Below, piece by piece: positions 2,229 through 35,683 of a DNA stretch of 41,544 nt (positions are counted from its first letter, which is position 1; each line of letters opens with the position of its first letter). Where the stretch lies: positions 1 to 41,544 of the IMG/VR virus record IMGVR_UViG_3300037511_000230; one strand, 5' to 3'. The notes below the pieces were generated by a model. It did no database searches, was not told the DNA's origin, and was given only the letters and a program-made list of their open reading frames with translations. The stretch is from a virus. Lineage: Duplodnaviria > Caudoviricetes. Both the position numbers and the translations under genes were made by a program.

Positions 2229-3125
2229 TTACAAAGACAGCGCCCGGCGGATGCCCTCCTCCAGGGTGACCTGCGGCGCGTAGTGGGTCAGCATCCGGCT
2301 CGGATCACCGACCCGGTACGCCACGCCCTGGGGCGCATCGGGGTCGACATGGATCGCGGGCTCGTACCCGGCCTCCCGGGCCATCATCCGCGCCAGCAGG
2401 ACGAACGACGTAGGTTTGCCGGTGCAGAGGTTGACCGGCTGCTCCGTGCCCGACTCGGCGACCGCGAGCGCTCCGGCCACGACGTCATCCACGTGAATCC
2501 AGTCCCGCGTGCAGTCCCCGCACCACAGCTGGACCGGATCGTCCCCCGCCTTGACCCGCTCCAGGATCGCCCGGAACGGGTAGCTCGGGTCCTGGTCCTC
2601 GCCGTAGCCGCTGAACGGCCGGACGACCGTGACCGGTACGCCGGTCCGGCGAAGCCGGTCGGCCAGCAGCTCGCCGGTGACCTTGCTCCAGCCGTAGACC
2701 TCGTCCGGCTGGGCGGTCCAGATCCCGCCCGGGTTCAGCACGTCCTCACGCAGCCGGGTCTCGTCTCCTCCGCTCTGGAGCATGACCGGGTACGCGGCCG
2801 AGCTGCTGAAGTACAGCACCCGGCCCGGCCGCGTGATGGCTGCCCAGCGGAACATCTCCGCGTCGATGGACAGCGACTCCGCCGTCTTGAGCGGATCGCG
2901 CTCGATGGTCTCCCGGCCGCCGACCACGGCCGCGCAGTGCACCACGAGGTCGAACGGCATCCAGTCGTGCTCCGGGTGCCGGGCCTGCTGCTGGAAGAAC
3001 AGACGGCAGTCCTGGGAGCTGGACGCCTTCACGTCCAGGCCGGTGACCTCGTACCCCCGACGCTCCAGCTCCGCCTTGAAGTGCCGCCCGAGGAAGCCCC
3101 GGTCGCCGGTGATCAGTGCCCTCAC
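2229..3125 (-). CDS. NAD-dependent epimerase/dehydratase (NDP-sugar modifying, extended SDR)
   Basis: LITGDRGFLG Rossmann motif, VVHCAA, FSSSAAY, YGWSK (YxxxK), RPFSGYG, RDWIHVDD; GTGA overlap start. Confidence 0.9.
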   Translation of the reverse strand: MRALITGDRGFLGRHFKAELERRGYEVTGLDVKASSSQDCRLFFQQQARHPEHDWMPFDLVVHCAAVVGGRETIERDPLKTAESLSIDAEMFRWAAITRPGRVLYFSSSAAYPVMLQSGGDETRLREDVLNPGGIWTAQPDEVYGWSKVTGELLADRLRRTGVPVTVVRPFSGYGEDQDPSYPFRAILERVKAGDDPVQLWCGDCTRDWIHVDDVVAGALAVAESGTEQPVNLCTGKPTSFVLLARMMAREAGYEPAIHVDPDAPQGVAYRVGDPSRMLTHYAPQVTLEEGIRRALSL

Positions 3126-3718
3126 CACTTGTCGCTCCGTCCGCTCGTGTTGCCCCCGTGCCAGTGCCAGATCCAGGTCCGGCGGTTGAGGTGTTCGATC
3201 TTCGCACCGGCGGCCACGATCCGCTCCCAGGTCCCCCAGTCGTCGCAAGGATTGTCCGGCGGCCCCTTCGGGGTGAAGCCCCCGACCTCCCAGATCACAT
3301 CGCTCCGCACCAGGACCGTGACCGGGATGTAGTTCTCCGTCCGCAGCAGCTCCTCACTGAACGGCTGACCCTCCCGGTACGGCCACGGGTCCCAGCCCTC
3401 CGGCACCGTGAACCACGGGTAGACCATGTCCGCCCCGGTGGCTTCGGCGTGCTCCATCAGCAGCCGGATGTGGTCGGGGTTCCACTCGTCGTCGTCGTCC
3501 AGGAACGCCATCCACTCCGTGTTCACGGACGAGCAGGCGTGGCTGCGGTTGCGGGCTGAGCCCTCACGCTCGTGGTCTACACGGATGCTCACTGCCTCGA
3601 CCGGCCGCTCCTGCTGGAGGACGGAGTCGACGGCCCGGTGCAGGTGTGTCTGGACCCGGGGCGGGATGGCCGGGATGACGGCCGTGACCCCGGGGCGCAG
3701 ATGCTTCAAGTGGTTCAC
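3122..3718 (-). CDS. glycosyltransferase family 2 (GT-A)
   Basis: VTAVIPAI, GSARNR, WMAFLDDDD (DxD), VGGF, DDWGTW; GTGA-coupled start. Confidence 0.85.
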   Translation of the reverse strand: MNHLKHLRPGVTAVIPAIPPRVQTHLHRAVDSVLQQERPVEAVSIRVDHEREGSARNRSHACSSVNTEWMAFLDDDDEWNPDHIRLLMEHAEATGADMVYPWFTVPEGWDPWPYREGQPFSEELLRTENYIPVTVLVRSDVIWEVGGFTPKGPPDNPCDDWGTWERIVAAGAKIEHLNRRTWIWHWHGGNTSGRSDKW

Positions 3719-4359
3719 CGGGCGACCGCCATCCAGAGCTGGTACGTGTAGGCGTTGTCCATGTGCCGGGTCGACTCCGGCACCAGCAGCCGGACCTCCA
3801 GCGGGCTCCAGCCCGCCTCCCACAGCATGTGATGGATGTCCGACTGCCCCCAGCCCCAGTAGTGCTCCTCGTTGCCGACCGAGGCGGCTTCGTCCAGCGG
3901 GGTGGACAGGAACAGGTACCGGCTGACGCCGGTCAGCTTCTGGAGCAGACCATCAGGGTCGGGGACGTGCTCCAGCGTCTCGGACAGGATGAACAGATCC
4001 ACCGGCAGCGACCGACCGGGGATGTCCTGGAACCCGGCCAGGCTGTCCGGCAGAGGTCCCGGCTCCAGGACCCGCACGTGTGTCCGGAGCGGGTAGTCGC
4101 CCCGGGCCCCGATCAGGTCCCCGACGTACGCCTGTTCCAGCAGATCGTCAATGCCCCGCAGGATCGCCGCGTCCCCGCAGGACAGGTCGGCCGCTGTCCT
4201 GATCCGGCCGCTGTACCGGCGGATCAGATCCACCGAGGCGGCCACCCGCTCCACGTGGTCCGGCCAGCGGTCGTGCCGGTACCCGAGGGGGTACCGGCCC
4301 TCGTAGAACGTAACCTCCTCGGCCTCGGTCCGGACCGGCCTCAGCTGTACCCGGGTCAC
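3715..4359 (-). CDS. class I SAM-dependent methyltransferase
   Basis: AADLSCGDA motif I; DLFILSETLEHVPDP; LFLSTP. Confidence 0.8.
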   Translation of the reverse strand: MTRVQLRPVRTEAEEVTFYEGRYPLGYRHDRWPDHVERVAASVDLIRRYSGRIRTAADLSCGDAAILRGIDDLLEQAYVGDLIGARGDYPLRTHVRVLEPGPLPDSLAGFQDIPGRSLPVDLFILSETLEHVPDPDGLLQKLTGVSRYLFLSTPLDEAASVGNEEHYWGWGQSDIHHMLWEAGWSPLEVRLLVPESTRHMDNAYTYQLWMAVAR

Positions 4360-5057
4360 AGCGCGTACTCCTCTCGCACCAGCTTGAGCGTGGCTTCCAT
4401 GCCGACTCCGTCCCGGTACTGCTCCCAGGCGAGCCGGTCGGCCGTGTCGGCGACCGAGGCGTTCACGGCCCGGTAGCGCTCGTCCCACTCCGCCTTACCG
4501 GCCACGGGGTGCAGGTGCTCGATGATCACGTCCTCCCTGTACCGGAGCCCGCCGGTCTGCTCCCCGAGGTGCTTCCAGAAGTTGTCCAGGTAGAGGTGCC
4601 GCATGCACTGCGGGGCCATCACCCCGATCGCCCGGATCATCCGCGACTGCATGAACACGGCGGTCGGCAGGTTCGCGCCCTGGAGCAGGTCATTGCCGTA
4701 GACGATGCGGGGCTCCAGGCTGTCCAGCTCGCTGATCATCTGCATGTCCCACCCGGCCGTCCGGGGCAGGTGGTCGTCCCCCATGAAGCCCACGTAGTCC
4801 ACCAGGTCGGCGTACGCGGTCGCCGCGTAGTTGAGCGGGCCGCACAGGCCCGTGCCTCCTGTGCTGCCGTAGATCATGAGCCGGGGGATGCCTCCCGTGT
4901 CCAGCAGGGCCTTGTAGCCGGGCAGCTCGGGGTCGTCCTTGTCGGCCACGAACACGGGCAGGGCGCCCGAGGCTGTGGTCTCCTCGAACGCCCTGGCCAG
5001 CCGGGCCGCGTTCTGGGGCCGTCCCCTGGTGGGGACGATCACTGCGAGTGCGGTCAC
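4356..5057 (-). CDS. glycosyltransferase family 2 (GT-A)
   Basis: LAVIVPTRGRP, GPLNYAA, VGFMGDDH, HLYLDN, VIIEHLHP. Confidence 0.85.
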   Translation of the reverse strand: MTALAVIVPTRGRPQNAARLARAFEETTASGALPVFVADKDDPELPGYKALLDTGGIPRLMIYGSTGGTGLCGPLNYAATAYADLVDYVGFMGDDHLPRTAGWDMQMISELDSLEPRIVYGNDLLQGANLPTAVFMQSRMIRAIGVMAPQCMRHLYLDNFWKHLGEQTGGLRYREDVIIEHLHPVAGKAEWDERYRAVNASVADTADRLAWEQYRDGVGMEATLKLVREEYAL

Positions 5058-5710: not shown

Positions 5711-5843
5711 CCCTGACTCGTCAGGGCTGCGTGGCCCAAGAACATACCCAGGCCAGGACGGTCGTCAGAAGTCTGATCAGACGTCTGATCAGCTCCTGAC
5801 GGCCATCCTGATCAGAGTCTGATCAGGTTCCTGACGCCTCCTG
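5711..5843. repeat. clustered CTGATCAG/CTGAC repeats; candidate clt (cis-acting locus of transfer)
   Basis: CTGATCAG at 5773, 5785, 5808 and 5819; 5773-5792 is a perfect 20-bp palindrome; CCCTGAC-TC-GTCAGGG at 5711; overlaps the traB stop. Confidence 0.6.
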
Positions 5844-7814
5844 AGAAGCGCCGGGGAACTGCCGGATGATGCTGAAGATCTTCTTGCCCTTCGGGGGCTG
5901 GTATGCCCGCAGAACGCCCGCCTCCACCAGGAGGTTCAGGTTGTTGTAGACCCAGCCCGGGGTCTTGCCGACCTCCCGGGGGATGTCCTCCAGGTCATCG
6001 AAGGTGATGTCCATGTGGCCGCCCCGGGCCAGCACCTCCAGCCTGTTCATCAGCCGGGCGCGGGCCTCCTCGGTGGACATCTTCACCTTGGGCTCGTCGC
6101 TGAAGGTGATGTCCAGCCCCGGACGGGGCGGTGTGAGGGGCTGGTTCGGGTCCGCCCCCGACACTCCGGCGAACGGGCTCATGATCTCCTCTTCCTCCTC
6201 TCCGAGCTCGTCTTCCTCCAGGTCAGCGTCCTCGGACGGGGTGAGCGCGGGGTCGATTCCGTACGCCATGCGCTCGTACGTCCCCGCGTCCATCCCGGCC
6301 CAGAACTGCCGTGAGCCCTCGATGCTGAACTGCTTCTCGGCCGGGGTCATGTAGACGGCCCGGCCGTCGACCGGCCAGTGGGTCTTGTCCGTGCCGGACA
6401 CCTCGGCGTACAGGCTGCCGGGGGCGTCGTTGCGCCACTTCGTCGGGTCGGCCCCGGCTTCCAGGGACTCGTTGCTCAGGCTGTACTTGGCGTCCTGGTA
6501 CTCGTTCTGGCCGTGGGCCAGGGACTCCACGAACTGCCCGCGCACCTTCCGGGGGATGTCGTCGTGGGGCATGGTCTGCATGCTGATGTTGAGCTTGACC
6601 CCGCAGGACCGCAGCTTGCGGACCGCCTCGTAGACCTCCTCGTCCATCTCCATCATGATGTCGGCGGCCTCTTCGATGTTGACGAAGACCGCCGGGATGC
6701 CGTGCAGCGTGTAGCACTCCGGCTCCCACTGCTTGTAGCCGGTGCCGCCGTCCGACCTGACGAGCGATCCGAGCAGGTCAGCCCGGTACTCCACCACCGG
6801 CCCGGCCAGGTTGACCAGCAGCTGCTTGCACTGGTCGGCGTTGACGGCCTTGAGCGCGAGCGTCTCCTCGATGTCGCCGAAGGACTGCCGGAACTTGGCC
6901 GGGTCGCCGACGACCGGCACGATGTCCGTCCGCCAGCGCATGTCCAGGATCGCCGTGCAGATCGTCTCGGTCTTGCCGGAGCCGTTGACGCCGGTGGTCT
7001 TGCAGTGCGCCAGGGGGCGGGCGTTCTCGGGGTCCGTGTTGCCGACCATCCACCACTCGATGTCCGAGCCGTCGGTCCGGCGGCCGAGGTACAGCGGAGC
7101 CGCCGCGCAGGACTGTCCCGGGGCCGAGGGTCCCCGGTAGGACACCGGACGTGACGTGTCCGCCCGCCGGTTGAGGACAACATCGGCGATGTCCTCCCGC
7201 CCCGGGACACGGAGCACCTTGACCTGATCCTTGTCCACCCCCGCCACGGCAGCGACCTGCTCCCGTGTCCTCTGCGCGTCCCCGACGGTGGTCGGGGCGT
7301 CCAGGTGGTGACGGATGCGCAGCTCGTCCGGGGACACGGACACGTCACCCTTCGCGACCTTGGCGTTCTTGAACGCGCTGATCTTGTCACCGAGCCAGGA
7401 CCCCGAGCTGTCCGCTGTCCTGTCACGGTCGTGTCCGCCGACTGTCCCGGCGTGACGGATCATCCAGAAGGAGGACAGGGACACCGAACCGATGACCCAC
7501 GCCTTGAGCATGTCCCCCCGCCAGGGGACACCCGACCCGGCGAACGCGATCCAGGACAGGGCGAGGACAACGGACAGCGTCGCTGTCACCCGGGTCTCGT
7601 GCCTGCGCCCCTTCCAGGTGCGCCACGTGCCGTAGGACATGACCGTGAAGATGGCCCCGATGATCGCCATCCAGCGGCCGTCCCCACCCACGGTGAAGTG
7701 GATGGCCACGGCCACCGGAAAGGCAGCGAGCGCGAGCAGCCACGGGGCCACGTACGGGGCTGCCTTCTCTCCGATGCGGAGCCCAAGAGAGCCCCGGCGG
7801 CCGTGACCAGCCAT
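5823..7814 (-). CDS. traB: TraB-like FtsK/SpoIIIE conjugative DNA translocase
   Basis: N-terminal TM helices, Walker A GVNGSGKT, Walker B VNIEEAA, RSCGVKLNISMQ, acidic linker and C-terminal wHTH, the architecture of Streptomyces plasmid TraB. Confidence 0.85.
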   Translation of the reverse strand: MAGHGRRGSLGLRIGEKAAPYVAPWLLALAAFPVAVAIHFTVGGDGRWMAIIGAIFTVMSYGTWRTWKGRRHETRVTATLSVVLALSWIAFAGSGVPWRGDMLKAWVIGSVSLSSFWMIRHAGTVGGHDRDRTADSSGSWLGDKISAFKNAKVAKGDVSVSPDELRIRHHLDAPTTVGDAQRTREQVAAVAGVDKDQVKVLRVPGREDIADVVLNRRADTSRPVSYRGPSAPGQSCAAAPLYLGRRTDGSDIEWWMVGNTDPENARPLAHCKTTGVNGSGKTETICTAILDMRWRTDIVPVVGDPAKFRQSFGDIEETLALKAVNADQCKQLLVNLAGPVVEYRADLLGSLVRSDGGTGYKQWEPECYTLHGIPAVFVNIEEAADIMMEMDEEVYEAVRKLRSCGVKLNISMQTMPHDDIPRKVRGQFVESLAHGQNEYQDAKYSLSNESLEAGADPTKWRNDAPGSLYAEVSGTDKTHWPVDGRAVYMTPAEKQFSIEGSRQFWAGMDAGTYERMAYGIDPALTPSEDADLEEDELGEEEEEIMSPFAGVSGADPNQPLTPPRPGLDITFSDEPKVKMSTEEARARLMNRLEVLARGGHMDITFDDLEDIPREVGKTPGWVYNNLNLLVEAGVLRAYQPPKGKKIFSIIRQFPGASQEASGT

Positions 7815-7815
7815 G

Positions 7816-8328
7816 TCAGCGACCTCCGAACGGGTCGAAGCCGCTCCGGCCCTTGTGGGGCTTGGCGACGGACGCGGACTCCAGGGACTCCAGGAAGTCC
7901 TCCATCAGGGCCCAGGTCTTGACGGCCCCGGTGGCGCTGGCCAGCAGGGACTCGGCAGACCCGGAGTTGAGCTGACGGCTCATGCGGATCAGGAGCGCCT
8001 TGAGCTTGCTCTTCTGGACCATGGTCATGCGGCCGTCGTCGGAGCGCTCACGGGCGGCCTTGCGGGCCGCTGCGTGGAGCTGAGCGGCCCCGGCGTGCGC
8101 GAAGAACGCCAGACCCTGGGACAGGGCCCGCAGGCTCTCCAGGAAGTCGTACAGCTCCTCCGGAGTCATCACCTCACCTGCGGCGATGGTCTCCAGGTGC
8201 TGCTCCATGGTCTTGCGAGTGGCGGCCGGAGCTCCGGTGGCCTTGGCGCCGGTGGCCGAGGTGCCGCTGGGGCGCCTCGGGGCGGCGGCCGTCTTCTTGG
8301 CGGCGCCGGTGCTGGGTGCTGTGGTCAT
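7816..8328 (-). CDS. TraA-like plasmid transfer protein
   Basis: Ala/Thr-rich N-terminus plus helical core, directly upstream of and coupled to traB, as traA is on Streptomyces plasmids. Confidence 0.55.
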   Translation of the reverse strand: MTTAPSTGAAKKTAAAPRRPSGTSATGAKATGAPAATRKTMEQHLETIAAGEVMTPEELYDFLESLRALSQGLAFFAHAGAAQLHAAARKAARERSDDGRMTMVQKSKLKALLIRMSRQLNSGSAESLLASATGAVKTWALMEDFLESLESASVAKPHKGRSGFDPFGGR

Positions 8329-8346
8329 GGTTCCTTGATCCTCTCG

Positions 8347-9246
8347 TTACGGGCGGGGGTGCTTGGCCTCGGCCCGGCGGATGGCTACGGACAGGCTGTT
8401 GGGCTTGGGCGGTGTCCCGTCCGGGGACACGTATTCGGCCTTGAGCGTGTCCCGGATCTTGTCCTTGTCCCACCCGGACAGCCACAGCTCGGCCGCCCTG
8501 GCGGACAGGGACACGGGGTTCTGTCCCGCCGTCTGTCCCGGGGACGCCGTCGCCTGTGTCCCCTTGGTGAGGGACAGGACATTGGACGCTGCCGGGACAG
8601 ACGGGCGGGACACCGGCTGTCCCGTGTCCTGTCCCACGGGGGACAGGACAGGAGCGGCCGGTACCGGTGACGGGACAGGACGGGGCCGAAGCCGTGTCAC
8701 GGTCGCCACCGGAGTCTGGATGTCCTGTCCCGTGTCCTCGGGGACACGGACAGGAGCGGGACGGACAGGGGACGCCGCCAGGTGCAGCAGGTGTCCCAGG
8801 ATGAACGGCGGAATGCCGGACACGATCACGACCAGCCACAGCGGCGGCCGGGGCTCGGCGCTCAGCCAGCCGGTGGTGAACATGTGACTGACGGGCTGAG
8901 CCGCCATGGCCAGGAGAAGGCTCAGTCCGGCCCCTACGACGGCCGTAGCCTTGCCCCGGGCCCCTCGGGGCCGGACGGTCGCCACAACGGCGGAAATGCC
9001 CGCGTAGAGGCTCAGGAGCCCGGCCCATCCCCACGACAGCCATGCCCGGTCGCCGTTCCACCCGGCCAGGTACGCCAGGTGCTGCTCACCGGGGGCACAG
9101 AGCACGAGCACGACCACAGCCGCCAGCGGGCGGCCCCAGTCGGTGAAGATCGGGACCCACCAGGGGATGTCCGGCCCGTGTCCCGCCTCGGGGACAGCGG
9201 TGTCACCGCCGGACACCCGGCGGGACACAAAGGGGATGCGAAGCAT
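8347..9246 (-). CDS. Spd/DUF2637-like membrane protein with Pro-rich linker and C-terminal putative DNA-binding domain
   Basis: Four TM segments (APGEQHLAYLAGW; VSGIPPFILGHLLHL), low-complexity linker, C-terminal helical domain. Confidence 0.65.
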   Translation of the reverse strand: MLRIPFVSRRVSGGDTAVPEAGHGPDIPWWVPIFTDWGRPLAAVVVLVLCAPGEQHLAYLAGWNGDRAWLSWGWAGLLSLYAGISAVVATVRPRGARGKATAVVGAGLSLLLAMAAQPVSHMFTTGWLSAEPRPPLWLVVIVSGIPPFILGHLLHLAASPVRPAPVRVPEDTGQDIQTPVATVTRLRPRPVPSPVPAAPVLSPVGQDTGQPVSRPSVPAASNVLSLTKGTQATASPGQTAGQNPVSLSARAAELWLSGWDKDKIRDTLKAEYVSPDGTPPKPNSLSVAIRRAEAKHPRP

Positions 9247-9337
9247 GGTCCTGTCCTTCCGTGGTCCGGTTTCCTTAAATCGGTGTGCTGAGGGTATGTC
9301 CTGTGCCGTGTCCCGTCAAACGTCCCGGGCGTGACAA

Positions 9338-9363
9338 AGGGCCGGGGACATGTCCCCGGCCCT
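9338..9363 (-). terminator. perfect 26-bp palindrome; terminator and/or binding site
   Basis: AGGGCCGGGGACATGTCCCCGGCCCT, followed by T residues on the minus strand; built around GGACA/TGTCC. Confidence 0.6.
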
Positions 9364-9383
9364 GCTGCCTGCGGTGTCCTCGG

Positions 9384-9617
9384 TCAGATGTCCCCGAGGA
9401 CACTGGCTCGGGCCGTCCGCCTGTCACTCGTCCGGCGGAAGTCCTCCTCCTCGGACACGAGCCGTGTCACCTCCTCCAGGGTGAAGGACAGCAGGGCCCT
9501 GTCCCGGGGCGCCATGTCCCGGATGATGTCCCGGGCGGTGTCCGGCTCGTCCGCGAGAACGGCCGTGAACGCCCGGACCATGTCCATGTCCTCGGCCCGC
9601 TCCAGTCGAATGTCCAT
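9384..9617 (-). CDS. hypothetical protein (77 aa)
   Basis: GACCAAGGGAGAACGATCATG start context. Confidence 0.7.
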   Translation of the reverse strand: MDIRLERAEDMDMVRAFTAVLADEPDTARDIIRDMAPRDRALLSFTLEEVTRLVSEEEDFRRTSDRRTARASVLGDI

Positions 9618-9860
9618 GATCGTTCTCCCTTGGTCGATGCTCTCTGTGCTGTATACCTACACGGTTACCGTCCGTGTCATTTTGCTAAACCTACCTGTCC
9701 GTAGCGTAGCCGTGTCCGGAGGTTCCCTTCTGAGGAACGAACAGGACCACCCCCTCACACTCCCAAGGGGTGGTCCGAGTTCGCAGTCGCCCAGGTCAGG
9801 CAGTGGTTTTATCAAATCGGGCATTCCGGGCGGCTGGCCGGACCGTATGCCTATACGGCG
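9615..9860 (-). repeat. copy 1 of ~250-bp inverted-repeat regulatory element
   Basis: 9651-9710 is identical to the reverse complement of 29778-29837; flanking blocks also match. Confidence 0.9.
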
Positions 9861-9871
9861 ATCCTGTATAT

Positions 9872-10525
9872 CTACGCGCCGCGCCCGGCCGTGGAGTGCC
9901 GGTTGGGGCTGGCGTTCCAGTTCCAGGTCTTGGCGTCCAGGTGCTCGATAGTCACTGGGGGCTGGCCGATGTCCGGCACACCGTCCAGCAGCCGGATCAG
10001 GTAGTCCTCGTCCTCGCCCCGGTACCGGCCGCCGTCCAGCGTGTACCCGGGGCGGAAGCCACCGATCCCCCGGACCAGACCGGTCAGCACGAGGTGCGTC
10101 ATGGGAATGAATGAGCCGTACGCCCGCAGGTGCGCCTCGTGCTCCGGCGACCACCGCAGCCCCCACGGGCTGACCGGGAACCGGCCCTGGTGCGTGAGCG
10201 CGGTCGGGTCGGTTCCGCCGATCATCCTCGGCCTCGGGTACACCAGCCCCGGCTTGAACGGCGACTGCTCCAGCACCCGCATGCACGCCCGCAGGTGATG
10301 AGGCTGGAGGGTGTCGTCATCGTCGAGCCAGGCGATCACGTCCGTCGTCACCCGGGCCAGCGCCCGGTTGCGGGCCGCCCACGCGCCGGTCCGCTCGCTG
10401 TCCCGCTCGACCACGATCTGATCGGGCAGCCGGGTCTGCGCGTGCACGGACGTCCGGGCCCGGTCCAGCAGGGCCTCCCGGCCAGGGATCGTGGGTATGC
10501 AGACTGCGACTGTCAGGCGGGCCAC
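9872..10525 (-). CDS. glycosyltransferase family 2 (GT-A)
   Basis: VAVCIPTIPGR, GAWAARNRAL, IAWLDDDD, IGGF, GEDEDY; resembles the GT at 3122-3718. Confidence 0.85.
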   Translation of the reverse strand: MARLTVAVCIPTIPGREALLDRARTSVHAQTRLPDQIVVERDSERTGAWAARNRALARVTTDVIAWLDDDDTLQPHHLRACMRVLEQSPFKPGLVYPRPRMIGGTDPTALTHQGRFPVSPWGLRWSPEHEAHLRAYGSFIPMTHLVLTGLVRGIGGFRPGYTLDGGRYRGEDEDYLIRLLDGVPDIGQPPVTIEHLDAKTWNWNASPNRHSTAGRGA

Positions 10526-10689
10526 GGCTGCCTCCCCATGCGCTCGGTCCAGCACCCGTTCGCGACACAGTCCGAACCGATGCACGCACACATCCGGCTG
10601 TCCCGCACCACCTGGTTGAACTGCCGGGCGGTCACCTTCCGGCGTCCCCGCTTCACCTGGTGCAGAGCTTTCTCCACGGTCGTCCTCAT
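10513..10689 (-). CDS. small Cys-containing hypothetical protein (58 aa)
   Basis: MRTTVEKALHQVKRG...MCACIGSDCVANGCW; ATGA overlap with the upstream gene; fills the gap. Confidence 0.5.
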   Translation of the reverse strand: MRTTVEKALHQVKRGRRKVTARQFNQVVRDSRMCACIGSDCVANGCWTERMGRQPWPA

Positions 10690-24511: not shown

Positions 24512-27500
24512 GTGACCACAGTGGACGACCCAGGGGTCCGTGCGCCCTCGGAGCTGATGCCCGGCCACCAGCGCGAGCTGGAGGAGAGCTGCATCTCGGC
24601 CGAGGTACAGGCGGCCCGCCGGTACGAGACCCTGTACGGAACGGATGAGGACCGGGCCCGGCTCAAGGAGCTGCGGGTGCCGAGGTGGGCCTGGCGGGAC
24701 GACATGGCCTTCCCGGCGCTGCTGCTGCCCATGTACCGGGTGAGCGGCGAGGAGATCGGGTTCCAGTTCAAGCCAGCCATCCCGCAGGAAGCCCCCGGCG
24801 GCAAGCGGCAGAAGTACGCCAGCCAGTCCGGCGTGCCCAACCGGCTGGACGTACCGCCGTCCGTGGCCGACGCAGTCCGTGATCCGAGCGAAGCTCTGTG
24901 GATCACGGAGGGGATCAAGAAGGCGGACTGCCTGGCGAGCTACGGGCGGCCGGTCGTCACGCTGACCGGCGTGTTCAACTGGCGCAGCAAGATGGGCACG
25001 CTCGGCGACTGGGAGGACATCCCGCTCCAGGGCCGGAACGTGGTGATCTGCTTCGACGCCGACGCGCGCGACAAGCGGAACGTCATGCTCGCGATGCAGC
25101 GGCTAGGGCGCTGGCTGGAGAGCAAGCAGGCCAAACCCCTGTACCTGATCGTGCCCGGCTCGGTGGAGGCGGCCGACGGCCGGACCGTCGAGACCAAGGG
25201 CGTGGACGACTACCTGCACGCGGGCGGCACCATGGACGGCCTGCGCAATGCGGCCATGGAGCAGCTTCCCCAGGACGGACAGGACGCCTCGTTCACGGAC
25301 AGGGTGCTGGCGGACACGGTGGTCTCCGAGGAGCTGGAGGGCCGGTTCAGGTGGGCCTCGGGACTCGGCTGGATGCAGTGGACCGGCAAGGTCTGGAAGG
25401 AGGCCACCGAGGTCACCGTGACCGAGGCGGTCAGCCGGTGGGCCCTGGAGCAGTACCACGACGCAGTCGACCGGCAGCACCGGGGCACCGGCCGTGACCT
25501 GTCGGCGGCGGTCGACGGCTGGCGCGGTGTGCTGAGCGCGAGCCGGGTGAGTGCCGTAGTCCGCCTCGCCAAGGGCACCCTGGAGTGCGACGCGGAAGCC
25601 TTCGACAGGGACCCGGACCTGCTCAACTGCCCGAACGGGATCGTCGACCTGCGGACGGGGGTGCTGACCCCGCACGACCCCGACATGCTGATGACGAAGA
25701 TCACGGGGGCGGACTTCGTCAAGAACGCGAGCCACCCGGACTGGGACAAGGCGCTGAGGGCCCTGCCGGACGAGGTGGTGGACTGGTTCCAGATCCGTGT
25801 CGGCCAGGCGGCCACCGGTCACATGACCTCGGACGGCAAGGTGCTCATCTGCCAGGGCGGCGGCGCCAACGGCAAGTCAACCGTGTACGACGGCATCGCC
25901 CTCGCGCTCGGCAAGTACCACGCACAGGTGAGCGACCGGGCCATGCTCGGCAACGCGAGCGACAACCACCCGACCGAGATCATGGACCTGATGGGCGCGC
26001 GGTACGCGGTGCTGGAGGAGACACCCGAGGCCCGGCGCCTGGACACCAACCGGCTCAAGAAGCTGGCCGACACCCGGGAGATCACCGGCAGGCGGATCCG
26101 GCAGGACCCGGTGACCTTCGAGGCGACGCACAGCCTGTTCATCAACAGCAACTACCGGCCGGTGGTGGACGAGACCGACCACGGCACCTGGAGGCGCCTG
26201 GCTCTGGTGTGCTGGCCGTTCACATTCCGGGACCACGCGGACGAGATCCGGGGCGAGAACGACCGGCTGGGGGACCCCACGCTGCGGGAGCGGGTGCAGC
26301 AGAACCCCCAGGCGCTTGAGGCTGCGCTCGCGTGGGTGGCGGCGGGGGCCCGGCGCTGGTACGAGCTGGAGCGGATCATGCCCCGGGTGCCGGACCGGGT
26401 GGAGGCCGACACCCTCGCGTGGCGCAAGGAGTCGGACCTGATCCTGGCGTTCGCCGACGAGCACCTGGAGTTCGACCCCGAGGCGTGCATCCAGGGGTCG
26501 GAACTGCGCTCCGTGTTCAACACGTGGATCAAGGACAAGGGCGGCCGGGAGTGGGGCGACAAGACGTTCATCGCCCGGTTCGGCGGTCACGATGTGTGTG
26601 CGCAGAACAGCGTGATCTACAAGGCCGTCTACAGCCCGAAGAAGCTGTCCTCACTCAGCGGGACGGGGGCGCACAAGGGCACCGTGAGGGCGTGGCTCGG
26701 GGTGGCGTGGAAGACGGACGACTCAGGGCCCGAGACAGGAGCAAACGAGGCCGACGGACCTGACAAAGATCCTTTCTCAAGTGCTCCGACCAGCAACATT
26801 ACACGTATTACACGTGCGCCTGGTACCGCTCTAGAGACTCCTCGCGTAAGGGGTAATGGGACGACGTGTAATAGCCGTAATGAGGAACAGTTGTACACCG
26901 AAAACGAGGCGCCCATGGATCAAGGAACCGACTACGGCGAGGACCCTTTCGCACCCGTGCAGGAGGCTCCCCCGGCTCCCGTCTCCCGGCCTGCGCTGCC
27001 CACCCTGGTGGGTTCGGTCGGGTGGGACATCGAGACCCCCTCAGCCAAGAAACTGTTCACGTTCCGTAGTCGGCCGGAGGCGTCCTTCGCCCGGCTGAAC
27101 GGACTCGTGGACGAGAACGGCCAGGAGGTGATCACCAACGACCCGGCGGAGCTGATCGAGCTGCTGGAGCGGGCGCCGGTGATCTACGGCCACAACATCT
27201 TCCGGTTCGACCTGATGGCGCTGGCCCTCCACCACGGGGCCGACTACGACCGGCTGGCCAAGAAGGCCTGGGACTCCTACGTGGACGAGGCCACCACCGA
27301 CCCGTCCGGCGGGCAGTACCTCGCCCCCTGGAACCAGGAGGGGTACTACGGGCTGGACAAGGCCCTGGAGCGCAGGGGCGAGCCCGGCAAGACCGACCAC
27401 CTCCCCGAGTTGGCGAAGGAGTACGCGGCCCCCGGCCTGGTCGGCAAGAAGGCTGCGGAGGACGGGTACGAGAAGATCCCGGTGGACAACGAGCGATACC

Positions 27501-29871: not shown

Positions 29872-30159
29872 GAGCACAAGTGCCTGAAGAACGGCAAGCC
29901 GACCGGCGCACTCGGGCCCGACCGGCCCTCCTGGGCCGAGCCGGGGGCCGTTACCAAGATTGCTGACGAGAAGCGCTGGGGCCGGGTGGACCTGCTCTGG
30001 ACCTGCTGCGGGGCCCGGCAGGTGACCTTGCAGGCTGAAGGCCAGGAATGGTTCGAGACCTTGTGCCTGCCCGTGGACGCGCTGGAGAACCCGGTCGGTG
30101 CGCACCGGGTCCCGAAGGGTGTCCTGCTGCCGACCCCGTGGCCGAGGGGGCGGTCCTGA
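29869..30159 (+). CDS. hypothetical protein
   Basis: ATG directly after the repeated element's RBS. Confidence 0.7.
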   Translation: MEHKCLKNGKPTGALGPDRPSWAEPGAVTKIADEKRWGRVDLLWTCCGARQVTLQAEGQEWFETLCLPVDALENPVGAHRVPKGVLLPTPWPRGRS

Positions 30160-30413
30160 TGTGGAAGCTGCTGAAGAAGGTGCTGCGCGCGGCCGTGGCG
30201 CAGCCGTGGGAGTACGTCGGCGAGGGCGCGCCCCACGACTGGGAGTTCCGGGTCAGCCCGGCCGACGACGGCATGTGCGCGGTCTACAACCCCGTGCACG
30301 GCGAGTGGTGGATCTTCAAGGACGTCGTCATCCTCGCCAAGGCCCGGATGAGCGAGATGGACGACCACACCGAGGACTGGCGGCAGTTCCTGAGCGTGGA
30401 GGACCCCGACTGA
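30159..30413 (+). CDS. hypothetical protein
   Basis: MWKLLKKV..., TGATG coupling. Confidence 0.65.
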   Translation: MWKLLKKVLRAAVAQPWEYVGEGAPHDWEFRVSPADDGMCAVYNPVHGEWWIFKDVVILAKARMSEMDDHTEDWRQFLSVEDPD

Positions 30414-30472
30414 TCACCCCGGCCTCGGGGCGCCGTGTCATCATCGTCCCGAGGCCGGATGAGAGGAACAGC

Positions 30473-31219
30473 ATGACCACGGAGTACGTCGACACGCGCA
30501 TGGTGCCGCTGGCAGACCTGACCCCCTTCCCGGGCAACGCCCGGCGGGGCAACAGGAAGGTGCTGCTGGAGTCGCTGGAGGAGAACGGGCAGTACCGGTC
30601 GCTCATCGTCCGGGACACCGATGGTGAGCTGGTCGTCCTCGCGGGCAACAACACCATGGAGGCCCTGGAGGCCCGGGGCGACACCGAGGCCCGGTGCGAG
30701 ATCGTCCGCTGCGACGACGCCACCGCCCTGCGCGTCAACTTGATCGACAACAAGGCCAACGACGAGGCCACCTACGACGACGAGGCGCGGGCCCGGCTCA
30801 TCGCGCTGCTGGACGGAGAGCTCAAGGGCACCGGCTACGAGGAGGACGAGGCTGACGCCATACTCGCCCGGTACGAGGAGGAGGAGTTCACCGACGTCGC
30901 CGAGCCTGAGGTCGCCGAGTTCAACGACGACGCCGAGGAGCGGCAGGCCCGGGTACGCAGCCACGGCGGTGAAGACTCCAAGACCATGGAGTCCCGGGGC
31001 ATCCGGGACATCTTCATCCCCCTGCCGGTGGCGCAGGCGGATGAGCTCGGGCGGCTGATCATGGCGTTGCGCGAGACCTGGGGCGCACTGCCGCAGGGCG
31101 AGATCCTGCTCAAGGCGGCCCGGGTGGCTCAACTAGTTGTGCAGGGCGGCGTTTACGGGGACGAGGACGTAGTCGACGTGGCAGACACGGTGTTCGAGGC
31201 CGAGGACACGGATGCCTGA
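30473..31219 (+). CDS. ParB-like N-terminal domain protein heading the DNA-modification cluster
   Basis: LTPFPGNARRG...ESLEENGQYRSLIV...VLAGNNTMEA...LIDNK; GAGGA RBS. Confidence 0.85.
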   Translation: MTTEYVDTRMVPLADLTPFPGNARRGNRKVLLESLEENGQYRSLIVRDTDGELVVLAGNNTMEALEARGDTEARCEIVRCDDATALRVNLIDNKANDEATYDDEARARLIALLDGELKGTGYEEDEADAILARYEEEEFTDVAEPEVAEFNDDAEERQARVRSHGGEDSKTMESRGIRDIFIPLPVAQADELGRLIMALRETWGALPQGEILLKAARVAQLVVQGGVYGDEDVVDVADTVFEAEDTDA

Positions 31220-32303
31220 GCTGACCGAGGGGGCCGACTTCCGCCGGGTGGAGTACCGGCGGGAGGTCTTCCTGCGCTTCTACGAGTGGAGCGTGCGCTA
31301 CAACAGCTTCCCCGGCGGGGTGCACTACGTGCTGCCGCACATCGCCTCGGCCCTGGAGCTGGACACCGAGGGCCGCTACTGGCTGGCCTGGCTCAACGCC
31401 AACACCCAGAACCCGGTGACGTCTCTCCTGCTCCTCCAGGCCGCTCCCCGGCCCCGGGACTGGAAGGCGGCCGTCGACTTCTGGCGCGCCAACTACCGCT
31501 CCCTCGACTGGGACACCGACCGCCGGTATCACAAAGCCCGGTTCGAGGACGCGCTCACCGGCTACGCCTCGGCCACGGACTGCTCCTGCACCCTGCCTCA
31601 GCACAAGTACTTCCGCTCGGCCGGGGGCGACTGGACCGGCTGGTGGGACCGGGCCCGAGCGCTGCCGACCATGGGCCGCCTGAGCACGTGGAGCTACTTG
31701 GAGTACCTGCGCATCCTGCTCGGACCGAGCGTCGTGCCCGATGCGATGGACCTGATGCTGGACGATATCCAGGGCAGCCGGTCGCACCGCAACGGGCTCG
31801 CGCTCGTGCTGGGTCAGGATCATCTGATCGTGGACAAGCAGCTTGGCTCGGGGACCACGGACAAGGTCTATGACCAGGACGTGCTCTACAACTTCGGCTG
31901 GGCTGCGCATGATCTGTACACCGAGGCGCAGCAGCGTGCCGGAGCCGAGGCCAACCGGCTCTCCCTGGAGTCCGCTCTCTGCACCTACAAGAGCTGGCAC
32001 AAGCCCAACCGCCGCTACCCGGGCGTCTACAACGACATGCTCTACAACCGGCTGGTCTCGGCCGAGAACCGCTGGGGGCGCCGGTTCGGCGTCATCTGGG
32101 ACGCGCGCCGGGCCGCGCTCCCCACCCGGCTCCGGCTGGAGGACCAGCCGTACGATCCGGGCCTGAGCCCGGTCAAGCAGAACTGGTATCTGACCACGGG
32201 CCAGGTGATCAACATGACGGAGGACTGGTCATGCTTCCGGAACGACTTCGAGGCCAAGGTGCAGGCGCACGAGTTCGGGAAGCGCGCCCGCCCCTGGATC
32301 TGA
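31212..32303 (+). CDS. amino acid:DNA transferase (aGPT-PPlase clade 2-like; HhH glycosylase fold)
   Basis: DTDRRYHK, MGRLSTWSYLEYL, GSRSHRNGL, LESALCTYKSW, RRYPGVYND. Confidence 0.8.
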   Translation: MPELTEGADFRRVEYRREVFLRFYEWSVRYNSFPGGVHYVLPHIASALELDTEGRYWLAWLNANTQNPVTSLLLLQAAPRPRDWKAAVDFWRANYRSLDWDTDRRYHKARFEDALTGYASATDCSCTLPQHKYFRSAGGDWTGWWDRARALPTMGRLSTWSYLEYLRILLGPSVVPDAMDLMLDDIQGSRSHRNGLALVLGQDHLIVDKQLGSGTTDKVYDQDVLYNFGWAAHDLYTEAQQRAGAEANRLSLESALCTYKSWHKPNRRYPGVYNDMLYNRLVSAENRWGRRFGVIWDARRAALPTRLRLEDQPYDPGLSPVKQNWYLTTGQVINMTEDWSCFRNDFEAKVQAHEFGKRARPWI

Positions 32304-33160
32304 GGAACTGGCTCAGCCCCGTGCAGGACCGGGACGGGCTGATCTACAAGCGCGAGGATCTCTGTACGCTCCCGGCCGGTGTCAACGGAGCCAAGCTGCG
32401 CGCCTGCGATCACCTCATCCGCCAGGGCGCCGCCTCGGGCAAGACCCGTATCGTGTCGGCCGCCTCGGTCCTGAGCCCGCAGAACGCCATGGCTGCTGTG
32501 CTTGCCGCGCGCTACGGGCTGGCGTGCACGATCGTGCTCGGAGGCACTCACCCGAGTACTGCCTTCCGGCACCGCAGCCCGGCCCTGGCCCGGGAGTACG
32601 GGGCGGAGTTCGACTTCATCCGGGTGGGGTACAACCCGGCGCTCCAGCGCAGGGCCGCCGACCTGCTCGCCCTGGACCGGCAGGCCTACTGGCTCCAGTA
32701 CGGCATCACCACCCCGCCCTCGGCCTCGGCCCGGGAGATGCGCGCCTTCCACCAGATCGCAGCCGACCAGGTGACCAACCTGCCCGACACGGTGCGCACG
32801 CTGGTGGTCCCGTTCGGTTCAGGCAACACGGCCGCCGGGGTGCTCATGGGCCTGAACCAGCACCGCCCCCGTGACCTGGAGCGGATCATCCTGGTCGGCA
32901 TCGGGCCCGACCGCCGGGCTTGGCTGCGGGACCGGTTCGAGTTCATGGGTGTCAGCCTGCCGAGGTACAGGCACCTCGACCTGCACGGCTCGGGCTATGC
33001 CACGTACTCCGACCGGATGCCCGGCCAGGCCGACGGCATCGTGCTCCACCCCACCTACGAAGGCAAGGTCGTCCGCTACCTCAACGAGAAGGCGCCCGAC
33101 TGGTGGGTCCGGCGCGACGGCACCACCTGTCTCTGGATCGTAGGAGGGCCGCTCAAGTGA
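32294..33160 (+). CDS. PLP-dependent enzyme, fold type II (ACC deaminase/Cys desulfhydrase-like); start uncertain
   Basis: YKREDL...NGAKLR (PLP lysine), SPQ, VVPFGSGNTAAG, LHPTYEGK, LWIVG. Confidence 0.85.
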   Translation: MDLRNWLSPVQDRDGLIYKREDLCTLPAGVNGAKLRACDHLIRQGAASGKTRIVSAASVLSPQNAMAAVLAARYGLACTIVLGGTHPSTAFRHRSPALAREYGAEFDFIRVGYNPALQRRAADLLALDRQAYWLQYGITTPPSASAREMRAFHQIAADQVTNLPDTVRTLVVPFGSGNTAAGVLMGLNQHRPRDLERIILVGIGPDRRAWLRDRFEFMGVSLPRYRHLDLHGSGYATYSDRMPGQADGIVLHPTYEGKVVRYLNEKAPDWWVRRDGTTCLWIVGGPLK

Positions 33161-33242
33161 TCGAGTGCACCTGCCCCCGCTGGCCGACCCCGGCCGAGAG
33201 CCACCGCCGCGCCTGCCCGATGAAGATCCTGGAGAGCCAACG

Positions 33243-33782
33243 ATGACCTACGCACCGCAGCCCGGCGACATCGGGCTCACCGTCATCACAGGCTGGGGAC
33301 GGCTCATCCGCCTCGGCCAGTGGCTCAACGGGGACGGCTTCGCCGACTTCGAGCATGCCTTCGTCGTCACCGATCTCGACTCCGGCGGCGCACCCTGGAT
33401 CGTGGAGGCCATGCCCGGCGGGGCGCAGTACGTGCGCAACTGGCACCCCGCCGACCGCACCGTCTACCTCCGCTGCCCGGCCGAGTACCGGGAGGCGGTA
33501 GCCGCCTCGGCCCGGGGGTTCATCGGCGTGCCGTACAGCGTGGCCGACTACTTCTTGCTCGCCGCACACCGGCTGCACATCCCAGCCCCGCACCTGAAGC
33601 GCTACATCCGTGACTCGGGCCACATGATCTGCTCCCAGCTCGCCGACACGGCGGCGGCCGAGGGCGGGTGGCACCTGTTCGACGACGGCCGCTGGCACGG
33701 GGACGTCACCCCGGGCGATCTCTATCGCCTGTACGTTACACAGCGCGCTCTGCGCATGAAGACCGGAGACGTGTCACGGTGA
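33243..33782 (+). CDS. permuted papain-like NlpC/P60 (YiiX/YebB-like) protein
   Basis: QPGDIGL, FEHAFV (His), VEAMPGG, GVPYS, MICSQLA (Cys), VTPGDL. Confidence 0.75.
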   Translation: MTYAPQPGDIGLTVITGWGRLIRLGQWLNGDGFADFEHAFVVTDLDSGGAPWIVEAMPGGAQYVRNWHPADRTVYLRCPAEYREAVAASARGFIGVPYSVADYFLLAAHRLHIPAPHLKRYIRDSGHMICSQLADTAAAEGGWHLFDDGRWHGDVTPGDLYRLYVTQRALRMKTGDVSR

Positions 33783-34024
33783 CCCTCGACTCCTTGACCT
33801 TGCTCGCCGCTCGGCACCTGGACGAGACAGAGGGCCCGGTACAGGTCGGTCGTGTCCTCACTGCCACAGATCGCTCCGCCATCAACACCCTGCTGCGTTA
33901 CGTGTCCCGGATGCACAACGGTGCCAGCACGGCGTGCCCCAGGTGCTCGCATCGAGCCCATCCCGGCCGGGAATGCGGCGCCGTGATGCAGGGCATGACC
34001 TGTTACTGCGGGAGGACCACGTGA
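33779..34024 (+). CDS. hypothetical protein with C-terminal Cys/His cluster
   Basis: CPRCSHRAH...C..CYC; GTGA coupling on both sides. Confidence 0.55.
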   Translation: MTLDSLTLLAARHLDETEGPVQVGRVLTATDRSAINTLLRYVSRMHNGASTACPRCSHRAHPGRECGAVMQGMTCYCGRTT

Positions 34025-34617
34025 TCAACAATCTGCTGTACCTCACGGGCCCGCCCGGCGTCGGCAAGTCCACCGTCGCCCGGGAACTGACCGCCGGGTG
34101 GGACCGGACCGTGCTGCGCCACGTGCCCGTGCCGCACTCCCGGCTCAGTCACCCGGCCTCGGGCCGCGTACTCGGGGTGGAGCTGGGCGTGCCCCGTGAT
34201 CAGTTCCCCGGCACCGACACCCTCGCCATGGACATCGGCCCCCGTGCGCTCCAGTTCCTGCTCGGGCAGTGCGTCCCGTTCGTCCTCGGGGAGGGCTCAC
34301 GGCTGGCTACGCGCCCGTTCCTGGGCGAGCTGGCCCGGGCGGGCGTGGCCGTCACGCTCGTGCGCCTGACGGCGGACGAGGAGCTTCTCACCGCACGCTG
34401 GCAGGCCCGAGGCGCCAAGCAGAACCCCTCCTGGCGCAAGGGCGCCGGGACCCGGGCCGACCGGCTGGCCGACTGGTTCCTCACCCAGACCTCGGAGCAC
34501 CGTCCCGGCTTCCGCACGTATCTCGATCTCGACGTCACCGAGATGGAACCGGGCGCTGTGGCCGACCGCGTCCGGGACGTGTTCCCCCTCATCGACCTGA
34601 GAGAATCAGCAACATGA
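34021..34617 (+). CDS. P-loop nucleotide/5-hmU kinase-like protein
   Basis: YLTGPPGVGKST; FPGTDTLAM, GEGSRL and RGAKQNPSW resemble the P-loop kinases of phage thymine-modification clusters. Confidence 0.75.
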   Translation: MINNLLYLTGPPGVGKSTVARELTAGWDRTVLRHVPVPHSRLSHPASGRVLGVELGVPRDQFPGTDTLAMDIGPRALQFLLGQCVPFVLGEGSRLATRPFLGELARAGVAVTLVRLTADEELLTARWQARGAKQNPSWRKGAGTRADRLADWFLTQTSEHRPGFRTYLDLDVTEMEPGAVADRVRDVFPLIDLRESAT

Positions 34618-34793
34618 TCAGCGAAGCAGAGGCCAAGGAACACGCCGACCGCCTGGTCCGGCTCACCCTCATGGACGGCACGGTGGTCGAGGGCTACCTG
34701 TTCACCCCCGGGTACTCGGGCGTGCGCATCCAGGTGCGCGGGGTAGACCGGCCGTACCGGTTCAGTCAGATCAGGTCGGTGGAGGACCAGTGA
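34614..34793 (+). CDS. small beta-rich hypothetical protein (59 aa)
   Basis: MISEAEAKEH...VRLTLMDGTVVEGYL; ATGA/GTGA coupling. Confidence 0.6.
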   Translation: MISEAEAKEHADRLVRLTLMDGTVVEGYLFTPGYSGVRIQVRGVDRPYRFSQIRSVEDQ

Positions 34794-35683
34794 TCAGCAT
34801 CCGTACCCGCACCCGGGTTCCGCAGGCCGAGCTGGACCTCAAGGTCGGCAAGGTGCTCGGCCCCGACAGCTACAACGTGCTGCTCACCGGGCCGACCCGC
34901 GTCTACCGGCCGAACGGCGCGCTGCTGTGCGTCTACCTGCCGGGCGCGATGAAGGGATTCGTCACCCCGGAGCAGTACGACATCCTCCACGGCCTGCGGT
35001 CCATTCGCACCAACAACCGGGGCAACGCCTCCGGCTCTCAGGCCATGCACGTCGGCAACCAGAAGCGCCAGTACTGGATGCACGTCAGCTCCAACATCAT
35101 CGGCTCGTTCGACCCGGCGGGGAGCTACAAGTTCTGCCGCCTCACCTCCTGGACCGGGCAGAACCTCCCCGCCTGGCAGGCGCTCCAGCCCGCCCTTCAG
35201 CGGGTCGGTGAGCAGTTCGCCGAGCACGTGCCCGACAGGTACGAAGCCCAGATGGAGGAGATCCGTCTCACGCACCCGGACTGGGTCGTGCCCGGCACCC
35301 CGTTCACCACCGTCACAGTCAACAACACGTACCCGACCGGCATGCACCAGGACAAGGGTGACCTGGACAAGGGCTTCAGCACGATCTTCACCCTGCGCCG
35401 GGGCAGCTACACCGGCGGGGTGTTCATGTTCCCGGAGTTCCGCCTCGGGGTGGACCTGCAAGACGGCGACCTCATCCTCATGGACGCGCACCAGTGGCAC
35501 GCCAACTCGGCCATCACCTGCGCCTGCGACAAACGGATCACCCGGTACTGCGAGGAGTGCGGGGCCGAGCGGATCAGCGTGGTCAGCTACATGAGGACCA
35601 ACATGGTGCGCTGCGCGAGTGAGGCCGAGGAGATCAAAAGGGCCCAGAATCACCGCGAGAAGTTCAAGGGCGCGGGCCGTTAA
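34790..35683 (+). CDS. TET/JBP-family 2OG-Fe(II) dioxygenase (5-methylpyrimidine oxidase)
   Basis: FTTVTVN, HQDKGD (HxD), GGVFMFPE, GDLILMDAHQWHAN (distal His), ERISVVSYMR (2OG Arg). Confidence 0.88.
   Translation: MISIRTRTRVPQAELDLKVGKVLGPDSYNVLLTGPTRVYRPNGALLCVYLPGAMKGFVTPEQYDILHGLRSIRTNNRGNASGSQAMHVGNQKRQYWMHVSSNIIGSFDPAGSYKFCRLTSWTGQNLPAWQALQPALQRVGEQFAEHVPDRYEAQMEEIRLTHPDWVVPGTPFTTVTVNNTYPTGMHQDKGDLDKGFSTIFTLRRGSYTGGVFMFPEFRLGVDLQDGDLILMDAHQWHANSAITCACDKRITRYCEECGAERISVVSYMRTNMVRCASEAEEIKRAQNHREKFKGAGR

Follow-up and report, generated by a model that had tools for sequence, protein, structure and literature searches.

The transfer module of IMG/VR virus record IMGVR_UViG_3300037511_000230 (Duplodnaviria; Caudoviricetes), whose 41,544 nucleotides were analysed in full and are called the window here, bears on how Spd proteins pick plasmid DNA for spreading in Streptomyces mycelium. 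Why are a traB-like gene and a membrane-protein gene (8347-9246, minus strand) of a phage filled with the pentamer GGACA, or TGTCC on the other strand, and what reads it? The copies form a DNA-level array centred on the membrane-protein gene. In comparisons of homologous loci, the array covaries with the C-terminal tail domain of the encoded protein and with residue 283 of that tail, which very probably binds the word.

GGACA/TGTCC occurs 77 times in 7110-9720, or 29.5 copies per kb versus 4.0 per kb elsewhere in the window, an enrichment of about 7-fold overall. The k-mer enrichment check suggested in a preliminary description of the sequence finds no local 5-mer excess in the window that is stronger than this field (Poisson ~1e-37). 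Copies lie on both strands (36 versus 41), in five of six frames and also between genes, as had been claimed, and they have no period. The fuller word is R-G-G-A-C-A, and a TGACA variant is present 10 times where 1.2 are expected. The densest block (8389-8822; 30 copies) covers the codons of the linker and C-terminal domain of the membrane protein. An upstream block (9168-9720; 24 copies, 22 of them within 9168-9615) covers the 5' end of the same gene, its promoter region and a 77-residue open reading frame (ORF; 9384-9617, minus strand), whereas a third (7110-7650; 22 copies) overlies traB codons 59-233. Earlier hand counts of about 30 in 8389-8822 and 22 in 9168-9615 were exact, and the reported density in the 5' part of traB is borne out. 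The expectation of fewer than one copy per 450 bp was too low, the genome background corresponding to about 1.8. The transmembrane-coding part (8823-9167) holds no copy and the traA-like gene only one, the near absence already remarked upon; this gene is almost word-free in relatives too, and transmembrane codons and traA are spared both in the window and on average across 28 loci. The traB block varies between relatives, with one copy in locus L014. Of three transfer-module genes said to be overprinted, traB and the membrane-protein gene stand, and the third is the 77-residue ORF together with the intergenic promoter region, not traA.

Three kinds of codon-aware control were generated 2000 times each: synonymous resampling, synonymous shuffling and codon-order shuffling. 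Against the 22 copies observed over residues 1-240 of traB the highest control reached 14, and against the 35 copies of the membrane-protein gene it reached 25; the 11 copies of the 77-residue ORF were matched by 6 of 2000 synonymous shuffles. No enrichment over these controls was found in traB from residue 241 to its end, in the transmembrane part or in traA. A peptide-repeat or codon-bias origin was rejected for the window, and the view of the field as a DNA-level signal withstood codon-preserving shuffling, a loss of enrichment under which had been named among the conditions that would overturn it.

The membrane protein (299 residues) is modelled by AlphaFold with four hydrophobic helices at residues 30-60, 68-90, 99-124 and 136-158, predicted to be transmembrane with moderate confidence. 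These are followed by a disordered linker of about 85 residues, coded by DNA built from the word, and by a C-terminal domain (residues 247-295) with a confident three-helix fold (predicted local distance difference test score of 80 when modelled alone), in which Asn283 is the first residue of helix 3. Its 246 homologues retain the transmembrane part and swap the tail, the swapped-in tails matching HTH_17/MerR. The window's tail is 89% identical to that of locus L001 and its transmembrane part groups elsewhere, which suggests a recent domain exchange. Neither protein nor tail gave a significant match in Pfam, PHROGs, NCBIfam, Foldseek, VIA-align or ESM Atlas, and tblastn of the protein against the plasmid collection gave none. 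PF10935 (DUF2637) matched 0 of 47 family members, and hhalign against 18 SpdB2-type transmembrane domains gave 0.6%. The tail profile also matches short proteins of 41-143 residues (P0122-P0235), 53 without a transmembrane match, some of which are repeat-protein noise or fragments.

From 83 deduplicated loci, seven were left out (six cut, one frameshifted), and the tails of the remaining 76 were classed by sequence patterns with one hand correction: 27 have the three-helix tail of the window, 24 a MerR-like helix-turn-helix (HTH) and 25 a third type. GGACA occurs at 13-40 copies per kb in 27/27 loci with the window-type tail and at fewer than 10 per kb in 49/49 with other tails. The base preceding GGACA, 41% purine in the background, is a purine in 13/13 loci with Asn283 and a pyrimidine in 9/9 with Asp283 (L061 being marginal at 0.48); where Asn283 is accompanied by an aromatic residue three positions on, it is a pyrimidine in 5/5 loci, all of one clade. 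The residue rule was also followed outside the gene, in blocks of at least 8 sites: upstream, Asn loci were purine-type in 10/10 cases and Asp loci pyrimidine-type in 8/9 with one tie, and downstream the counts were 8/8 and 5/6, again with one tie. A linker-peptide proxy, by which the word was read from 149 proteins and which agreed with the DNA at 26/27 loci (Spearman 0.87), classed 71 of 72 Asn proteins as purine-type and 48 of 66 Asp proteins as C-type. With a continuous score, 15.5 of 17 independent pairs on the transmembrane-domain tree ran in the predicted direction (median p 5e-4), and on the tail tree 6.5 of 7 did so (p between 0.016 and 0.45, median 0.03). The earlier guess that the C-terminal domain is the reader is thus strongly supported by covariation, that is, by sequence comparison.

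Whether homologues with other tails carry other words had been proposed as a check, and some with MerR-like tails do. Those of one helix type have CGTCTCA in 9/10 loci, of which seven belong to a single clade and two sit on branches apart, and others have TGAGCA, CGGGAC or CCGCGCA. Unrelated transmembrane families show the same behaviour, with CTGAGC in 2/2 loci of one further group. Fields of CGTGAGC mark the SpdB2/DUF2637-type genes of pJV1, pSN22 and two further plasmids, while pWTY27 has its own CGCGAAC and pCQ3 CGCATCA. Chromosomal SpdB2-type genes with an HTH tail carry CGTGAAC-type words in 29/30 loci, the exception having another C-terminus. Own-word fields exceeded synonymous shuffling in 35 of 36 cases, with words chosen after inspection. 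The SpdB2-type gene of pSN22 (L081 5361-6444) seems, as recorded, to be broken by a frameshift that leaves its HTH-like part in the next ORF, and that of pJV1 is continuous. A Thermobispora plasmid (NZ_CP039125.1; L238 7083-9500) has an extreme CGGTACC field shortly after traB and its clt-like repeat; one gene alone contains 50 copies of the 7-mer, and the field runs on beyond it.

Several observations weigh against the tail as reader of a word of its own. The tail has no clear match to a known DNA-binding fold and none to a Pfam family; its best structural match, tied with a designed protein, is BsaWI (Z 6.2, root-mean-square deviation 2.1, 50 aligned). All 25 loci with the third tail type and about seven MerR-like loci are without a field or clear word, respectively. 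Fields are also missing from 29 of the 30 top DUF2637 matches, mostly one family, and from pIJ101 spdB and three other plasmid genes, so a field is not required for every SpdB2/DUF2637-type protein. Many chromosomal SpdB2 genes hold all copies in one coiled-coil frame, and tandem duplication could contribute to such single-frame arrays. SpdB2 of pSVH1 is reported as a non-specific DNA binder in the accessible text of PMC4447253. Plasmid pS1D4-14.2 (L080 4500-7300), which carries a different transmembrane protein, has a stand-alone Asp-type three-helix tail inside a CGAAAG/CGAGAG field, and 1.5 kb from it lies a second field, of CGGGAC. This arrangement fits a simple tail-word rule poorly. By the peptide proxy, 13 of 66 Asp proteins are still purine-type; intermediate Asp proteins inside an Asn clade may have fields lagging behind a recent change. 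Each trait needs four changes on the transmembrane-domain tree, with only two supported pairs, weak alone, and binary independent-pair tests were not significant, with too few pairs. The continuous test was picked after the binary ones and rests on the peptide proxy, and recombination of the transmembrane domain means that the pairs may lack independent origins. Finally, the window-type tail and TraB are nearly always found together (25/27 versus 2/49), and because of this near-perfect co-occurrence presence and absence alone cannot separate the two.

In the mechanism that we propose, helix 3 of the tail would contact R-GGACA, Asn accepting a purine and Asp a cytosine. In such DNA one word occurs every 250 bp, and it is therefore density that would confer specificity. 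Membrane-bound tails, several at a time and each on a long, flexible linker, could grip many weak sites at once, and this avidity would select the element's own DNA, 1.3-4 kb from clt. Held at the Spd/TraB complex, that DNA might be spread along hyphae or retained without ParA, and copies adjoining the promoter would probably give the protein a second role, the damping of its own operon. We consider it somewhat probable that membrane-anchored tails on many weak sites tether the element near clt for spreading or retention. The membrane tether of the preliminary description would follow from the predicted four-helix architecture, the tethering itself being what we infer from it. "Centromere-like" fits the array loosely and fails for a ParA-type ATPase, PF13614 being found in 0 of 5 complete relatives (controls 14/14; other ATPase types were not searched).

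The main rival keeps the same reader and gives it regulation as its main job: a membrane-bound autorepressor would capture its own gene and promoter and limit a toxic spd-traA-traB operon, dispersed copies only raising the local concentration. A promoter-like pattern on the minus strand (9291-9319), with a -35 box at 9319-9314, a 17-bp spacer and a -10 box at 9296-9291, recurs as a pattern match in 6/28 loci, and a stricter sigma-70 scan called no promoter there. GGACA copies adjoin both boxes and another overlaps the ribosome-binding site (9252-9256); in 7/7 aligned close relatives, neither the copy before the -10 box nor the one at the ribosome-binding site varies. The 12-bp same-strand spacing seen in the promoter is also the commonest when loci are pooled (102 versus ~35), no GntR-type TraR was found among the 54 window ORFs scanned, and traB is described as toxic when unregulated (PMC4447253, accessible part). 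Repression would need neither some 70 sites nor a block inside traB, however, and the records with a GntR regulator (pJV1, pWTY27 and pCQ3) have their field within the body of the gene and 0 copies in the preceding 600 bp. Autorepression is a likely second role, and as the main job it is unlikely. A different reader, encoded by the element or host, with the tail covarying through linkage only, is less likely again. Co-inheritance of the module genes would allow it, as would a second word block in a distant virion-region gene of 4 of 11 paired relatives, but a swapped tail comes with a different word, a single helix 3 residue goes with a shift of the word, and the 77-residue ORF and traA are detected only in close relatives.

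Neutral origin by slippage or peptide repeats in low-complexity regions would explain why copies avoid conserved transmembrane codons, why the distant second block lies in a repeat protein and why many SpdB2 genes have single-frame arrays. Set against this are the copies in five of six frames, on both strands and between genes, without period and surviving codon-preserving shuffles, the sparing of the low-complexity start of traA, and the tracking of residue 283, which drift does not explain; we regard this origin as very improbable. Slightly less credible still is a TraB loading or polarity field, the alternative offered in the preliminary description. TraB follows in 25/27 loci with the field and one block lies inside traB. 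A separate clt-like repeat of four CTGATCAG (5765-5845), however, sits at the traB stop; it has the position of the tested clt of pWTY27 and is the likely TraB site of the window. Relatives have other repeats there and keep GGACA, and by eye the word is shared by elements that differ in clt word and in TraB tail, and it does not covary with the TraB winged HTH. In pWTY27 itself the tested TraB site is TGACACC (PMC3583192, accessible part), whereas the field word is CGCGAAC. The CGTCTCA field occurs both with TraB (two loci) and without TraB within 5.6 kb downstream (five loci), and the window's copies are unpolarised.

The perfect 26-bp palindrome at 9338-9363, now confirmed, lies 20 bp after the 77-residue ORF and is likely a terminator-type hairpin decorated with the word. 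Several relatives have hairpins of other sequence (loop 0-6) at a similar position; as a fixed dimer site it was rejected, the hairpin being conserved in position and variable in loop and sequence. Fixed dimer geometry was likewise dropped, since no inverted spacing dominated in 27 pooled loci and a head-to-head 10-mer occurred in 8/28. The second GGACA-rich block mentioned above lies in an Ala-rich virion-region ORF of low complexity, with 17-37 copies in 4 of 11 paired relatives (L208 8408-9781 of G156, G153 at ~62.5-63.5 kb, L218 and L227) and none in the rest. It seemed in three genomes to be a further covarying site, and was dropped as such at 4/11; a repeat at the peptide level could account for it, as could a second site of sporadic occurrence.

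The window has terminase, primase-polymerase and helicase genes, and the phage is Streptomyces-type. Relatives sharing the transfer module are phage records of 76-93 kb, several complete; a serine recombinase was found in 0 of 5 complete relatives and no tyrosine integrase in 4 of the 5, and we infer a phage-plasmid lifestyle. The TraB-like DNA translocase (5823-7814, minus strand; 49 plasmid hits) matches NF041214 over its full length (E 6.6e-91, 306 bits, below the curated 800-bit cut-off) and is a divergent homologue of plasmid TraB. The nearest TraB (51%) is encoded on a linear Streptomyces plasmid with the same neighbour genes, and tblastn of the window's TraB against cultured phages gave no match. 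The adjoining traA-like gene (7816-8328, minus strand) matches NF041213 below cut-off (E 5.5e-4), and the 77-residue ORF is kept only by close relatives. On either side of the transfer module lie glycosyltransferase, methyltransferase and epimerase genes (2229-5057 and 9872-10591), as in pS1D4-14.2. A gene cluster at 30098-35683 with ParB-like, PLP-enzyme (pyridoxal phosphate) and tRNA-guanine-transglycosylase-like matches is suggestive of DNA modification. AT-rich repeats (ATTAC x5; 26001-27500) lie upstream of or within the replication region.

The field is real and likely functional. There is, in our judgement, slightly less than an even chance that a self-addressing system, so far unrecognised, is common to phages, plasmids and integrative elements of actinomycetes. 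If it is, unrelated membrane spreading proteins gain interchangeable DNA-binding tails, and the element then recasts its coding DNA as a dense field of whichever word the tail reads. The residue-to-base code would be readable, and density, not a long site, would mark the self DNA moved between hyphal compartments. A word found every few hundred bases would seem non-specific in a gel shift, yet could be selective by density. Such a system would offer a protein-DNA code that has changed many times independently in nature, and would be a case of coding sequence shaped by a DNA-binding overlay. The candidate site and recognition residue named here can be tested in the laboratory plasmids pJV1, pSN22 and pWTY27. 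Sites inside the reader's own gene (sps, RepAM) and a helix-coded, element-specific word (clt) are already known; no description of a dense, degenerate field that follows the tail of a membrane protein was found in the open-access literature, a scope outside which subscription papers, the original SpdB2 study included, and supplements fall.

Among known systems, parS/ParB, ram/RacA and NBS/Noc also combine cis sites with a protein linking DNA to a cell location. To our knowledge, these have long palindromic sites and no integral membrane reader, and unlike parS/ParB-type systems the five complete relatives of the window had no ParA-type ATPase found. Closer in design is SpdB2, which in the accessible text of PMC4447253 is a TraB-interacting, four-transmembrane oligomer of pSVH1, required for spreading and with homologues on actinophages; spdB2 also stabilises SLP2, an SLP2 spdB2 mutant being unstable (cited in PMC4170104, likewise in part). 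Like SpdB2/DUF2637 proteins, the window protein has four predicted transmembrane helices and a long C-terminal region, its gene lies beside traA/traB in a tra/spd module in which TraB follows in 25/27 loci with the window-type tail, and the DUF2637-type genes of pWTY27, pJV1 and pSN22 bear the same kind of field. Its transmembrane domain, in contrast, has no sequence similarity to DUF2637, and by analogy it would work like SpdB2 by architecture and not as a DUF2637 protein by sequence. No cognate site for SpdB2 is given in the portions of the literature examined, where its binding is non-specific.

The 8-bp clt repeats read by TraB are likewise an element-specific short word whose reader is a helix of a membrane protein of the same module, and the accessible text of PMC3583192 gives a footprinted TraB site at the traB 3' position of pWTY27. 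Unlike clt, which is compact, non-coding and made of direct repeats after traB, the GGACA field spreads across 2.6 kb of coding DNA with copies on both strands, and a compact clt-like repeat is present separately in the window at 5765-5845. Gbn (SCO1839) resembles the tail, by description only, as a small three-helix actinobacterial domain with a GATC word clustered at its own promoter, whereas it is soluble, chromosomal and genome-wide in its binding (PMC9239103, accessible part). Sites inside the reader's own gene are shared with sps of pIJ101, read by SpdA2 and affecting segregational stability (PMC4170104), and with the RepAM sites of pMEA300 (PMC2440964). In the accessible parts of these two papers, such sites number one to three copies of a conserved 12-bp palindrome, or are 8-bp repeats in a hairpin, and the readers are not described as membrane proteins; the window, in contrast, has dozens of 5-6-bp words that vary with their putative membrane-anchored reader.

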